A stretch of 64,000 nucleotides of DNA, taken from Betaproteobacteria bacterium. Its GTDB lineage: Bacteria; Pseudomonadota; Gammaproteobacteria; Burkholderiales; SG8-39. A model generated the notes under the pieces. That model was not told the origin of the DNA, did not search any database, and saw only the letters and a list, made by a program, of their open reading frames with translations. The position numbers were made by a program, and so were the translations under genes. Shown piece after piece: positions 13,222-17,064 of the stretch. How positions within the stretch are numbered: position 1 is the first letter of the stretch; each line of letters opens with the position of its first letter. The stretch is taken from the NCBI GenBank assembly GCA_009693235.1, contig SHXR01000009.1, positions 2,195-66,194 on the forward strand, given 5' to 3'.

Positions 13222-13456
13222 TGCGGGTCTCCGGTTGCGGGGGATCTGAACCCCTGATGAGTCATGGCAGATGGGGGCTATGCCTGCCGCATGATAGCAA
13301 TTCGCGGGCGAGGTGAGCGATTCGATCGGCGGGCCGATTCTTCGGCGGGCAGCCGATTACGCTCGGAATGTCTACAATCGATCCATCGTCGCCGCGCGAT
13401 CACGAGTGAAGTGCCGAATCCGGCGATCCCTCTGCAGATTCTGGAGCGAATTGATT

Positions 13457-14416
13457 ATGGCTTGCCGGTTCACCCTGTTCGTCTTGTCCATCGTGTTGGC
13501 GAACGCCGTCGCTGCGCAGTCGTTTCCCAACAAGCCGTTGCGCATCATTCAAGGATCCGCACCGGGCGGCAACGCCGATACCGCCGCGCGTTTGCTTGGA
13601 CAAGGGATGCAAAAAGCGCTTGGGCAACCGATCATCGTCGACACGCGCCTGGGTGGGGCAGGGCGCATTGCCGCCGACGCCGTGGCCAAGGCCGCACCGG
13701 ACGGTTACACGATGCTGCTCATCACCGGCGGTCATGTGACGACCGGCGCGGCGTCAAAGTCATTACCCTATGACACGGACAAAAGCTTCGCGTGGATCTC
13801 CATGGCGAGCGAATTCCCATTTATGCTGGTGGTGCGTGCCGATTCAAAGCTCCAGAACTTGGCCGCGGTGCTCGCCGAAGCGCGCGCCAAGCCACAGACC
13901 GTCACGTTCGGTTCATCAGGCACGGGCGCAACACTGCACCTCGTTGGCGAACTGATGGGGCGAATGGCGAACGTGGAGCTGGTCCATGTCCCCTATAAAG
14001 GCGAGTCGCAGGCGATGACGGCAATTCTAGCGGGTGACATCAACTTTTCCGTGGCAACGCCAACGACCGCGGTGGGTCAAGTGAACGGCGGCAAAGTGAA
14101 GGCGATCGCAGTGTCCTCCGCAACCCGTTGGCCCGGTATGCCGGACGTACCGACCATCGCGGAGGCAGGCGTGCCCGGCTACGATGTGCGCTCTTGGCTC
14201 GGGCTGGCGACGACTGGCGGAACGCCGCGCGCGGTGGTCGATCGCTTGCATGAAGCGATGATGGTCGCGCTCAAAGAGCCCGAAGTCAAAGCGCGACTGG
14301 AAGCGATGGGCGGCACGGTGCGTGGCAGCACACCCGATGAAACCCGCCAACGCGTCGTGTCGGAACTTGCGCGGTGGAACAAGGTGATCACTGAGGCGAA
14401 TATTCCGCGGGAGTAA
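13457..14416 (+). CDS. Bug/TctC-family substrate-binding protein
   Basis: Signal peptide MACRFTLFVLSIVLANAVAA, then FPNKPLRIIQGSAPGGNAD...PDGYTMLL. A GGAGCG RBS precedes ATG 13457. Confidence 0.85.
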   Translation: MACRFTLFVLSIVLANAVAAQSFPNKPLRIIQGSAPGGNADTAARLLGQGMQKALGQPIIVDTRLGGAGRIAADAVAKAAPDGYTMLLITGGHVTTGAASKSLPYDTDKSFAWISMASEFPFMLVVRADSKLQNLAAVLAEARAKPQTVTFGSSGTGATLHLVGELMGRMANVELVHVPYKGESQAMTAILAGDINFSVATPTTAVGQVNGGKVKAIAVSSATRWPGMPDVPTIAEAGVPGYDVRSWLGLATTGGTPRAVVDRLHEAMMVALKEPEVKARLEAMGGTVRGSTPDETRQRVVSELARWNKVITEANIPRE

Positions 14417-14479: not shown

Positions 14480-15013
14480 TTACGCACTCACGCCAGGCCG
14501 CGCATCCACCGTTCGCATGAACACCTGCATACCGTAGTGAAACGCGATGAACGCGCCTAACTCCATAATCTGCGCCTCGCTGTAGTGCTCCTTGAAGCGC
14601 GCATAGAACGCGGCGTCGTTCTGGTCGGCGTCCAAATACATCTGCACGGCGAATTGGATGGCTAGCTTCTCGGCCGGGGTGTACGGACCCTCATTGAATT
14701 TTGTGGCGGCCGCGATCCTTTCTTCCGTCAATCCACTTGCTTTTGCTTGCTTGGATCGAAGGGTGCCGAAGTACGAATCGCCTGCGATGCCGGCCAACCG
14801 AACGCGAATGATCTCCTTCAACCGGTGATCGACGTTGCCTTCGGTGTGCGACATGAGGAGGGCGCGCAGCAGTGCCTTTGCGTAGCTCGGCACATGCGCA
14901 AGGATGCGCGGGAACACCGCATCGGGAACGCCCAACTTCTCGCAGCGTGTGATGAGATCGCGTAATTCCGGATCGGTAATCGATGCCATTGCCAGCGGTT
15001 GGATGTTGGGCAT
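14480..15013 (-). CDS. carboxymuconolactone decarboxylase (CMD)/AhpD-like family protein
   Basis: 177 aa, paralogous to the 15017..15634 gene. Contains HRLKEIIRVRLAGI...PAEKLAIQFA...IMELGAFIAFHYG. Its ATG lies 3 nt after the upstream gene's stop, with a GAGGG RBS inside that gene. Confidence 0.8.
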   Translation of the reverse strand: MPNIQPLAMASITDPELRDLITRCEKLGVPDAVFPRILAHVPSYAKALLRALLMSHTEGNVDHRLKEIIRVRLAGIAGDSYFGTLRSKQAKASGLTEERIAAATKFNEGPYTPAEKLAIQFAVQMYLDADQNDAAFYARFKEHYSEAQIMELGAFIAFHYGMQVFMRTVDARPGVSA

Positions 15014-15016
15014 CGT

Positions 15017-15634
15017 TCAGGCCCTCGCCGCTTGCAGGGATATCGGTGCATCGCCGTAGAGGCGGACCGACTCTTCCTGACTGATCAGGCGTCCATCTGG
15101 GGAGAACATCGGATAGAACTTGAGCGTGCCAAAGAATGTGTGATAGCCGATATTCATGCCAACAAAGCTGCCCAACTCGACGATTTCTTCTTCCGAGTAA
15201 TGCTGACGCAACTCGTCATAGAACGCGGCGCCTATCGCGCCCGGGTTGAGCGCCATCGTTTCGCTATAGCGCAGGGCTATTTTTTCCGCGGGACTGAGCT
15301 TGGTGCTGGCCCCGTAGTTGTTGATGCCATCGTCGAGATTTTCTTCTGAAAGCCCTTGCCACTTCGCCGAAGCGGACCGGACATTCCCTCAATACGTACA
15401 GGCGACCAGGCGTGAGAGTTGCACGCGAATGATCTCTTTCAGCTTATGGGGCACCCGGCCGGTATTGAAGACGGTATTCCAGGCGACAAACATCGCTTCA
15501 GCGAGATCGACGTTGTGGCCCATCATCGCGTGAAAGCCGGGATCGGGCGCCTTGTTCTTGAGGCACATCTCGATGTAGGGTGCGAGCTTGGTCTTCTTCA
15601 GATCGTCGATATCGAGCATCGTGATATTGGGCAT
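15017..15634 (-). CDS. CMD/AhpD-like family protein with one in-frame TGA (15389-15391); either a candidate selenoprotein or a recent nonsense pseudogene
   Basis: The single frame is open for 205 codons apart from one TGA. Both halves are homologous to the downstream paralog. The context is C-T-Y-TGA. AAGGAGA RBS. Confidence 0.55.
15359..15375 (-). other. sense-strand hairpin 14-30 nt 3' of the in-frame UGA (SECIS-like position)
   Basis: mRNA CCGCUUC-GGC-GAAGUGG forms 7 bp including one G-U pair. The opposite strand would have an A-C mismatch at that position. Confidence 0.35.
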
Positions 15635-15718
15635 TGCTGTCTCCTTGCACCATTGGTGCCCGCATTATGCGCGATAAGCTATCCTTGTCTCTTGTTTCTT
15701 GCCTCTAGTCGCTTGATC

Positions 15719-16597
15719 ATGAAACCCACGCCCTTTGACTACGCATCACCCGCCACCCTTGCCGAGGCCGTCTCACTGCTGTCGGCACGCGATGCGAACG
15801 CCATGCCGATTGCGGGCGGGCAAAGTCTGATGCCGGTGCTCGCTTTTCGGCTGGCTGCACCGAAGCTGCTGGTGGATCTGCGACGCATTCCCGGGCTTAA
15901 TCGCATTGAGACCAACAGCGAAGGCGTTCACCTTGGCGCGATGGTGCGCTGGCGTGATATCGAAGATGATGCACGGCTTGATAACGCCCATCCGTTATTG
16001 AAAGCGGCGATCGAGCATGTGGCGCACTACCAGATTCGTAATCGCGGCACGATCGGCGGCAGCCTCGCCCATGCTGATCCTGCTGCCGAACTTCCCGGCA
16101 TTGCGGTGACTTGTGATGGGATCATAAATGCCGCTGGTCCGAACGGGGCGCGTACCATTCGCGCCGCCGAGTTTTTTCTCGGGCCCCTGAGTACCGCACT
16201 GAAAACCGGCGAAATCATCACGGGTCTGCAACTATCGCCGTGGTCGGTGGCGCGACGGTGGGGCTTCGAGGAGATATCGCGTCGTCGTGGTGATTTTGCG
16301 ATCACCGCGATCGGTCTTTTCTACGACACCGACGCAGCCGGCCGGGCAGCGAATACGCATATCGGCGTTATTGGCGCATGCCGGCGACCACATCGCATTG
16401 CAGAAGCTGAGGCGGCTCTCAACGGATGTGCCGTCAATGACGCATCCATTCTTGCCGCGGCGAAAGTGGCTGCAACGGCGGTCGATCCCCCAGAAGATTT
16501 GCATGCGCCCGCGCGTTATCGACGCGCCTTGGTTGAGACTTTGGTCGAGCGCGCGTTGCGTCAGGCGGCGGCTCGATCCACGCGCGGGAACACTTGA
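15719..16597 (+). CDS. molybdopterin dehydrogenase FAD-binding (medium, CoxM-like) subunit of a xanthine dehydrogenase/CO dehydrogenase-family enzyme
   Basis: Contains FDYASPATLAEAVSLL...PIAGGQSLMPVLAFRLA...IRNRGTIGGSLAHADPAAELP, a typical FAD_binding_5 domain. Confidence 0.85.
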   Translation: MKPTPFDYASPATLAEAVSLLSARDANAMPIAGGQSLMPVLAFRLAAPKLLVDLRRIPGLNRIETNSEGVHLGAMVRWRDIEDDARLDNAHPLLKAAIEHVAHYQIRNRGTIGGSLAHADPAAELPGIAVTCDGIINAAGPNGARTIRAAEFFLGPLSTALKTGEIITGLQLSPWSVARRWGFEEISRRRGDFAITAIGLFYDTDAAGRAANTHIGVIGACRRPHRIAEAEAALNGCAVNDASILAAAKVAATAVDPPEDLHAPARYRRALVETLVERALRQAAARSTRGNT

Positions 16598-16599
16598 TC

Positions 16600-17064
16600 A
16601 TGACGATTCAGTTCGAGGTCAATGGCAAGGCGGTGAAGGTGGAGGTCGAGCCGCGCACGCACCTTGCGGATTGCTTGCGACATGGGCTTGGACTTACCGG
16701 CACCCACGTCGGCTGCGAGCATGGCGTATGTGGTGCATGCACGGTGATCGTCAATGGCGAGGCGGTAAGGTCGTGTCTCATGCTCGCCGTACAAGCGGAG
16801 GGTGCGAAGATCATCACGGTCGAGGGATTGAGCCGTGATGAAGCGCTCTCACCCTTGCAGGCCGCGTTTCGCAAGCACCATGCTTTGCAATGTGGCTTCT
16901 GCACACCCGGCATGATCACGACGGCCCATGCCTTGCTCACCGATGAACCCGATGCCGACATAAAGCGCATCCGCGAGGTACTGTCGGGCAATCTGTGTCG
17001 CTGCACCGGCTACATCCCGATCGTCGAGGCGGTGATGGAGGCCCGGGCCGCTTACCGCAAGTAG
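16600..17064 (+). CDS. (2Fe-2S)-binding small (CoxS-like) subunit
   Basis: Contains GCEHGVCGACTV...CGFCTPGMI...LCRCTGY, both Fe-S cluster motifs. Confidence 0.9.
   Translation: MTIQFEVNGKAVKVEVEPRTHLADCLRHGLGLTGTHVGCEHGVCGACTVIVNGEAVRSCLMLAVQAEGAKIITVEGLSRDEALSPLQAAFRKHHALQCGFCTPGMITTAHALLTDEPDADIKRIREVLSGNLCRCTGYIPIVEAVMEARAAYRK

Follow-up and report, generated by a model that had tools for sequence, protein, structure and literature searches.

A predicted selenoprotein gene of the AhpD/CMD superfamily with an in-frame TGA conserved in uncultured Burkholderiales and Alphaproteobacteria

The 64,000-nucleotide stretch of Betaproteobacteria bacterium DNA analyzed here (contig SHXR01000009.1 of assembly GCA_009693235.1, positions 2,195 to 66,194; hereafter the window) carries on its minus strand, at 15634..15017, what we read with a probability of about 0.9 as one intact selenoprotein gene whose internal TGA specifies selenocysteine (Sec). 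A preliminary description of the window, made from the letters alone, had proposed Sec decoding for this gene, and the proposal is now supported by the conservation of the TGA, selection on the codons past it, a downstream hairpin, the match of Cys and Sec in homologs, linkage to sel genes and a published family of the same kind. Sequence, translation and the list of open reading frames (ORFs) agree that the minus strand from 15634 to 15017 is one frame of 205 sense codons with a single internal stop. The mechanical ORF finder returned it as two minus-strand fragments flanking the TGA, 15389..15634 (81 residues) and 15017..15256 (79 residues), and the preliminary description had correctly reported these fragments and the sole internal TGA at 15389-15391. 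The local motif reads C79-T-Y-TGA-G-N-V-R-S-A-S-A-K; its C-T-Y-TGA core, and the D-S-Y-F that the paralog immediately downstream has at the same columns, are likewise as first described. The read-through product, which had been said to align with this paralog, does so over residues 1-178 (36% identity, E = 3e-35). The parts of the gene are the following.

15017..15634, minus strand: candidate selenoprotein coding sequence, with ATG at 15634..15632 and terminal TGA at 15019..15017, Sec82 counted
15391..15389, minus strand: in-frame TGA, codon 82, predicted Sec codon and second position of the redox motif
15398..15400, minus strand: TGT codon of Cys79, the partner thiol in CxxU
15641..15645, minus strand: Shine-Dalgarno-like AGGAG, 6 nt 5' of the ATG, read from the sequence

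Conservation of the TGA and of the codons beyond it

A scan in which each species was represented by a single genome (GTDB representatives) yielded 63 loci, all of them in metagenome-assembled genomes (MAGs) of Burkholderiales/Betaproteobacteria or Alphaproteobacteria, and 61 of these span the TGA column. Together with the window they make up a comparison set of 62 sequences, with 60-97% amino acid identity. At the column of codon 82 every one of the 62 has TGA, never TAA or TAG, with the frame open on both sides, and Cys79 is invariant as well (TGC in 55, TGT in 7). The preliminary description had singled out this column for comparison and had reckoned with orthologs that carry a sense codon other than Cys; no such ortholog occurs among the 62, which uniformly have TGA, and in distant homologs the residue is Cys. 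Judged from the sequences, the recurrence of the same TGA, frame and hairpin in 61 independent loci is far beyond chance.

TGC at the Sec column is found in one close relative only, L067 (ENA ERZ27321360 NODE_1149279, protein P0024), which retains the full hairpin. The contig in question is 518 bp long with a coverage of 1.27, and its TGC may reflect either a true, recent change from Sec to Cys or an error in the reads.

The window is syntenic with one of the MAG loci, L001, at about 86-87% nucleotide identity, and with two others, L002 and L003, at about 77-80%. In Nei-Gojobori comparisons of the window with L001, L002 and L003, which stay within its genus, the ratio of nonsynonymous to synonymous substitution rates (dN/dS) is 0.053, 0.073 and 0.059, respectively, for codons 83-205, and 0.008-0.067 for the part 5' of the TGA. 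Given these low values past the TGA, the downstream half is protein-coding in this lineage. No restart codon after the TGA is conserved among the 62 sequences: the first in-frame ATG, GTG or TTG lies between +3 and +60 codons past it, depending on the locus, and at +45 in the window, where it falls beyond codons 83-126 and hence beyond the invariant GNVRSASAK that they hold. A separate C-terminal polypeptide is unlikely, because the restart position is variable and as far out as +45 in the window, yet GNVRSASAK is invariant. TGA also serves as a normal terminator: it closes 24 of the 42 long open frames in the window and, among these same genes, 40 of 58, and the internal TGA therefore needs specific recoding.

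More distant relatives came from a phmmer search run exhaustively over 1.84 billion cluster representatives, with the database protein P0001 (77% identical to the window protein) as query. They fall into three classes: N-terminal fragments that stop exactly at ...C-x-Y, proteins of the paralog type with D-x-Y-F, and distant full-length proteins (about 26-38% identity) with C-x-[YF]-C, in which the second Cys stands at the TGA column.

The candidate SECIS hairpin, decoding genes and published relatives

The preliminary description had drawn a hairpin, CCGCUUC-GGC-GAAGUGG, at nt 14-30 past the UGA and with a G-U pair, and it is present as drawn, with 7 bp and the G-U pair at 15373/15361. The apical loop GGC occupies nt 24-26 from the U of the UGA, its GG being about 21 nt past the UGA. 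We predict that this hairpin is a bacterial selenocysteine insertion sequence (SECIS) of canonical type, and a longer stem can be drawn around it.

15375..15359, minus strand: predicted bacterial SECIS hairpin, stem CCGCUUC/GAAGUGG formed by 15375..15369 with 15365..15359, loop GGC at 15368..15366
15352..15382, minus strand: possible extended lower SECIS stem, GUCC/GGGC flanking the core, from the minimum free energy fold and weakly supported

The loop bases G24/G25 lie near the position of G23/U24, which are essential in the SECIS of E. coli fdhF. When 61 sequences were aligned from the TGA through +60 nt, RNAalifold kept a 6-bp helix, columns 18-23 with 27-32 (from the U of the UGA), which is fully paired in 61 of 61. 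The variable core pairs change only compatibly (C-G in 48, U-G in 10 and U-A in 3 at one pair; G-C in 57 and G-U in 4 at another). Codons 88-91 (Ala-Ser-Ala-Lys) are GCT-TCG-GCG-AAG in 62 of 62 sequences, the Lys codon counting as 61 of 61 with one sequence having another residue there; the other invariant Gly, Leu, Ser, Arg and Val columns of the gene have a codon entropy of about 1-2 bits. Synonymous sites are frozen exactly at the stem, and this invariance is itself the signal. Of the extended lower stem, pairs 10-40, 12-38 and 13-37 mostly hold in the alignment and 11-39 is unpaired in half of it, and RNAalifold dropped the stem (columns 10-13 with 37-40) on the 61 sequences. According to the 2005 survey (PMC1088965), a bacterial SECIS is a short stem-loop that directly follows the UGA and whose apical loop is small and contains G, a description that the window hairpin fits in its closeness to the UGA and its small loop with G.

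Genes for Sec decoding were found next to the gene in both Alpha- and Betaproteobacteria. Within 10 kb of it, ARAGORN placed a tRNA-Sec in 11 loci and tblastn placed selA and/or selB in 15, with selD also present in L022 (12937-13902); the union of local tRNA-Sec, selA and selB is 16 loci (L014, L022, L030, L031, L032, L037, L039, L045, L046, L049, L050, L052, L053, L054, L056 and L057). At these 16 loci the sel genes and the AhpD-like cassette form a compact Sec-utilization cluster. An exact consensus pattern located tRNA-Sec elsewhere in the MAGs of L004, L005, L013, L034 and L035, on other contigs or in distant parts, and a looser pattern added that of L061 among the matches listed. At least 22 of the 61 carrier genomes thus demonstrably encode Sec machinery, and the physical linkage to a single-copy sel gene set is striking.

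CxxU selenoproteins called 'AhpD-like' and 'CMD domain-containing' were described for the Sargasso Sea in 2005 (PMC1088965) and the same kinds again for the Global Ocean Sampling (GOS) in 2008 (PMC2398784), and both appear in a 2026 review (PMC13188914). The 2005 supplement (Zhang, Fomenko & Gladyshev) lists AACY01716242 and AACY01688758 as 'CMD domain-containing protein', with the sequence VDHKLKE[VI]IRVQLSRAADCNYuGNVRSASAKQQGLTEE..., and the GOS 2008 supplement has JCVI_READ_1558542 and JCVI_READ_1510389, the same protein, in a file part headed 'AhpD-like 1'. The window protein is 60.3% identical to JCVI_READ_1558542 over 199 residues and 60.7% identical to AACY01716242 over 89, and it shares with this 'CMD domain-containing'/'AhpD-like 1' family the ...HKLKE[IV]IRVQLSR...C-x-Y-U-GNVRSASAK... 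pattern, the CxxU and the TGA column. By sequence, the window gene is a member of a published, computationally predicted selenoprotein family, and its kind is already known. The statement in the preliminary description that Sec-containing AhpD-like proteins had been reported was right, with the exact subfamily in both the 2005 and 2008 catalogues. The published 'CMD domain-containing' members are reads of marine origin, whereas the window and its relatives belong to MAGs of uncultured Burkholderiales/Betaproteobacteria and Alphaproteobacteria, the names of which point to soil, sand and groundwater. The ...ECEYU-IRAH... group of AhpD-like proteins (COG2128/TIGR01926), dominant in the GOS 'AhpD-like 1' set, has the same superfamily, fold, CxxU and predicted SECIS type, and Sec is its second redox residue as in the window protein. 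It is nevertheless another subfamily, since the window protein reaches 38 bits against the TIGR01926 cutoff of 81.8 and the surroundings of the motif differ.

Competing readings of the internal TGA

The gene might be a pseudogene in which a recent nonsense mutation turned TGC or TGT into TGA within an ordinary CxxC AhpD-like gene. A single-base change suffices for this, and the low-coverage 518-bp metagenome contig encoding P0024, with TGC at the column, speaks in its favor; but the TGA is found in 62 of 62 species-level representatives from two proteobacterial classes, purifying selection downstream is strong (dN/dS 0.05-0.07), and this codon is also the breakpoint of hundreds of database fragments. 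Its presence across Alpha- and Betaproteobacteria, along with this dN/dS, excludes the recent nonsense mutation that the preliminary description had named as the alternative, and we give the pseudogene practically no credence. It is scarcely conceivable, too, that the TGA of the window arose through an error of sequencing or assembly, a doubt raised at the outset. The exact protein of the paralog occurs on five contigs of independent assemblies, including ENA ERZ1305449 and Logan SRR8561391, and two of these contigs have identical split calls of 81 and 79 residues just upstream of the paralog. This recurrence in independent metagenome assemblies and the TGA in 61 other assemblies exclude such an error.

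A genuinely split gene, in which an 81-residue N-terminal chain and a re-initiated C-terminal chain assemble non-covalently, would account for the conservation of both halves, and possible downstream starts do exist (GTG at +3 in 2 loci, TTG at +13 in 7 and ATG at +45 in 25). We consider it very improbable, as no start is conserved and codon +3 is GTC or GTT in 59 of 62; codons 83-126 of the window, which precede its first start at +45 and include GNVRSASAK, are under purifying selection; the break would fall inside the motif equivalent to the CxxC active site; and the conserved hairpin and the linkage to sel genes would go unexplained. Reading of the UGA without selenium, as Trp, Cys or Gly or under a reassigned code, would give a full-length protein that is not a selenoprotein. 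In its favor, some pipelines give homologs W at this position and no Sec machinery was found in the window. In P0001, however, the W was checked in the DNA and is TGA, an artefact of the translation table. TGA terminates most of these genes and most long ORFs of the window, the position is a catalytic Cys in homologs, and 16 genomes have selA, selB and selC in physical linkage with the gene. Such a reading seems to us very improbable.

Several observations weigh against the Sec reading itself, or against the function deduced for the product. The 64-kb window has no tRNA by ARAGORN and no Rfam match at gathering thresholds, and E. coli SelA, SelB and SelD found no match in it by tblastn. In the MAGs of the closest relatives, L001-L003, an exact-pattern scan (46 sites found) gave no tRNA-Sec and a looser pattern gave none among the matches listed (at least 120), a negative that is uninformative because the scans demand exact pattern matches and the MAGs are incomplete. 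The search for Sec machinery suggested by the preliminary description therefore has a divided outcome, with none in the window or in these three MAGs and its presence in 22 other carriers. Covariation in the hairpin is thin, with double changes in one pair only and in 3 sequences, because the element is nearly invariant. The hairpin is also short (7 bp with a 3-nt loop), and a 71-nt fold has z = -0.69 relative to shuffles; its fold energy being close to that of shuffled sequences, the significance of the hairpin rests on conservation and not on energy. The function is read from fold and motif, and the window protein, scored with C at position 82, falls short of the relevant profiles: 22.1 bits for PF02627 (CMD, the carboxymuconolactone decarboxylase family) against a gathering threshold of 23, 38.1 bits for TIGR01926 (peroxidase-related enzyme) against a cutoff of 81.8, and 55.3 bits for NF053654 against 310. 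No NCBIfam model reaches its cutoff, so the subfamily is uncovered, and the gene is unannotated because the NCBIfam scores lie far under the cutoffs and PF02627 is missed by one bit. Finally, the family literature that we found consists of computational predictions only, in 2005, 2008 and 2026 alike (PMC1088965, PMC2398784, PMC13188914).

If the UGA of codon 82 is decoded as Sec during translation, the product would be a selenoprotein of about 22 kDa in the AhpD/CMD (COG2128-type) superfamily. The hairpin would act as a bacterial SECIS by which SelB-GTP-Sec-tRNA(Sec) is recruited to the ribosome, and C79-x-x-U82 would make a selenylsulfide/selenol-thiol redox centre where relatives have a CxxC disulfide centre. 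The enzyme would most likely be a thiol-type oxidoreductase that reduces peroxides or disulfides, probably as a complex with the Cys-less paralog transcribed along with it, and in many genomes a neighboring Sec-containing protein resembling peroxiredoxin (Prx) would be likely to serve as its partner or substrate. What we infer from these comparisons is the insertion of Sec by this organism and, with it, the redox chemistry, the physiological substrate and the heteromer.

Partner genes, fold and database records

The genes on either side of the selenoprotein gene in the window are the following.

14480..15013, minus strand: Cys-less paralog, 177 residues, D-S-Y-F at the CxxU columns, starting 3 nt past the stop of the Sec gene
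15720-17064 and 13313-14416, plus strand: flanking genes, for a CoxM-like subunit, a probable 2Fe-2S small subunit (from the ORF translation) and a TctC/Bug-family protein

In every locus with enough sequence the paralog comes directly after the Sec gene, and the conserved unit is this pair of Sec gene and Cys-less paralog. D-x-Y-F is found in 55 of 58 paralogs (the window and 57 loci), and the conserved redox Cys is absent from the motif. The paralog is probably co-translated with the Sec protein as a partner subunit, given that its start lies only 3 nt beyond the stop of the Sec gene, and its sequence suggests a non-catalytic one. The pairing is not described in the available parts of the 2005 and 2008 papers on the family. 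Upstream and on the other strand, the window has the CoxM-like FAD-binding subunit (PF00941/PF03450), and downstream the TctC/Bug-family solute-binding protein (PF03401). Only L001-L003 have this context in common with the window, and the flanking genes are for that reason unlikely to be related to the selenoprotein cassette.

Eleven loci have, close to the cassette, a redoxin/Prx-like gene whose frame contains a TGA within the motif F-[YF]-R-G-x-W-TGA-P-[YF]-C, hence UxxC (L013:16295, L014:17480, L027:8377, L031:3985, L032:11324, L034:7171, L039:11562, L046:9037 and L059:6851, and on the minus strand L050:1330 and L052:5444). In several loci it directly follows the paralog and precedes the tRNA-Sec and selB-selA; the window has no copy of it. 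The gene matches the published 'Prx-like'/'Prx-like 1' selenoprotein family (FYRGHWuPYC), and neighboring Prx-like/AhpD-like pairs are mentioned in PMC2398784 and PMC13188914. Clustering of six-frame ORFs for conserved neighbors was dominated by spurious high-GC frames, and the only credible ones to emerge were the gene pair itself, SelA, SelB and the Prx-like gene. We tentatively suggest, as a possibility that we hold to be rather doubtful, that the CxxU AhpD-like subunit and an obligatory redox-dead D-x-Y-F paralog make up a heteromer, often joined by the Prx-like UxxC gene and selA-selB-selC in a 'selenium redox island' that brings its own decoding machinery and may be mobile between Alpha- and Betaproteobacteria.

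Structural comparison relied on an AlphaFold model of P0001 (pLDDT, the predicted local distance difference test, 82; pTM, the predicted template modeling score, 0.81), in which residues 80-84 form a short helix beginning at the redox motif. Foldseek matched the model to 6OHI, 2PFX, 7XW1, 2OYO, 6K40 and 2PRR with probability 1.00 and template modeling (TM) scores of 0.6-0.78. TM is 0.66-0.71 against Bmp8 and the 'peroxidase-related' COG2128 structures (2PFX, 2OYO and 2PRR), and further fold matches are P. aeruginosa AhpD (7XW1) and D. radiodurans alkyl hydroperoxide reductase (6K40). On the model, the assignment of the window protein to the AhpD/CMD structural superfamily holds despite the narrow miss of PF02627, a profile that the paralog passes with 25.6 bits against 23. 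The closest solved structure by sequence (E = 1.4e-13) is that of the Bmp8 debrominase (6OHI/6OHJ), a thiol-dependent reductive dehalogenase of the CMD family; the folds agree with TM 0.66/0.70, and the C-M-Y-C of Bmp8 aligns with the C-x-Y-U of the window family. Bmp8 differs, however, in its identity of only about 22%, in having Cys instead of Sec and in its bmp biosynthetic gene context. With Bmp8 as the closest solved relative, the enzyme might, more speculatively, be a Sec-dependent reductive dehalogenase analogous to the deiodinases, although nothing in the present data points to halogenated substrates such as those of Bmp8. M. tuberculosis AhpD (1KNC/1GU9), the alkylhydroperoxidase that reduces AhpC, has the same all-helical AhpD/CMD fold and a CxxC-type redox centre, and its AhpC/AhpD logic is resembled by the pairing with the Prx-like gene at many loci. 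It is, however, a remote structural match only (Foldseek E about 1.4, TM 0.43-0.49), and its lipoamide/AhpC coupling is without evidence in the window system. The best NCBIfam match, NF053654 'GroundWater_YciW, YciW-related (seleno)protein', is also a Sec/Cys-variable model of the AhpD superfamily, of which the window protein, at 55 bits against 310, is not a member.

Among 5.8 billion proteins, a word-indexed search picked out 433 homologs, 120 of which were listed. Most of those listed are fragments of 112-134 residues that start at query residue 85 or 95, past the TGA, others are artificial fusions of the C-terminal fragment with the downstream paralog (P0007-P0028), and the few 'full-length' entries (P0001-P0006 and P0036) have W at the TGA column. 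In P0001 the codon under this W is TGA, and the caller had used TGA=Trp (table-4-style) on a short contig. Trp at the Sec column and the chimeric ORFs are systematic annotation artefacts, and none of the 120 is named as a selenoprotein. The gene and hundreds of homologs in public protein databases are stored as fragments of 81 and about 79-126 residues, as fusions with the paralog or with a spurious Trp. Gene callers routinely cut the gene in two, and for soil and freshwater proteobacteria an entire clade of selenoproteins is left without annotation. These data leave the current understanding of selenoproteins unchanged, and their main value is for annotation. What they add is that the family, published from marine reads, also occurs widely in uncultured Beta- and Alphaproteobacteria, that it is invariably paired with the redox-dead paralog, and that it is frequently linked to selA-selB-selC and the Prx-like selenoprotein. 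The gene marks the uncultured Burkholderiales and Alphaproteobacteria that carry it as users of Sec, and the pairing and linkage lead to a testable hypothesis, that of an AhpC/AhpD-like selenium-based system for peroxide reduction.

Three of the loci bear species names in their record titles: 'Klebsiella pneumoniae' for L001 (CAMDRJ010000008.1), 'Bordetella parapertussis' for L036 (CAMDLH010000036.1) and 'Devosia equisanguinis' for L040 (CAMDBL010000037.1). At least the Klebsiella title looks like a taxonomic mislabel, because L001 shares synteny with the window, with about 86-87% nucleotide identity, and the other close relatives are titled as Burkholderiales/Betaproteobacteria MAGs.

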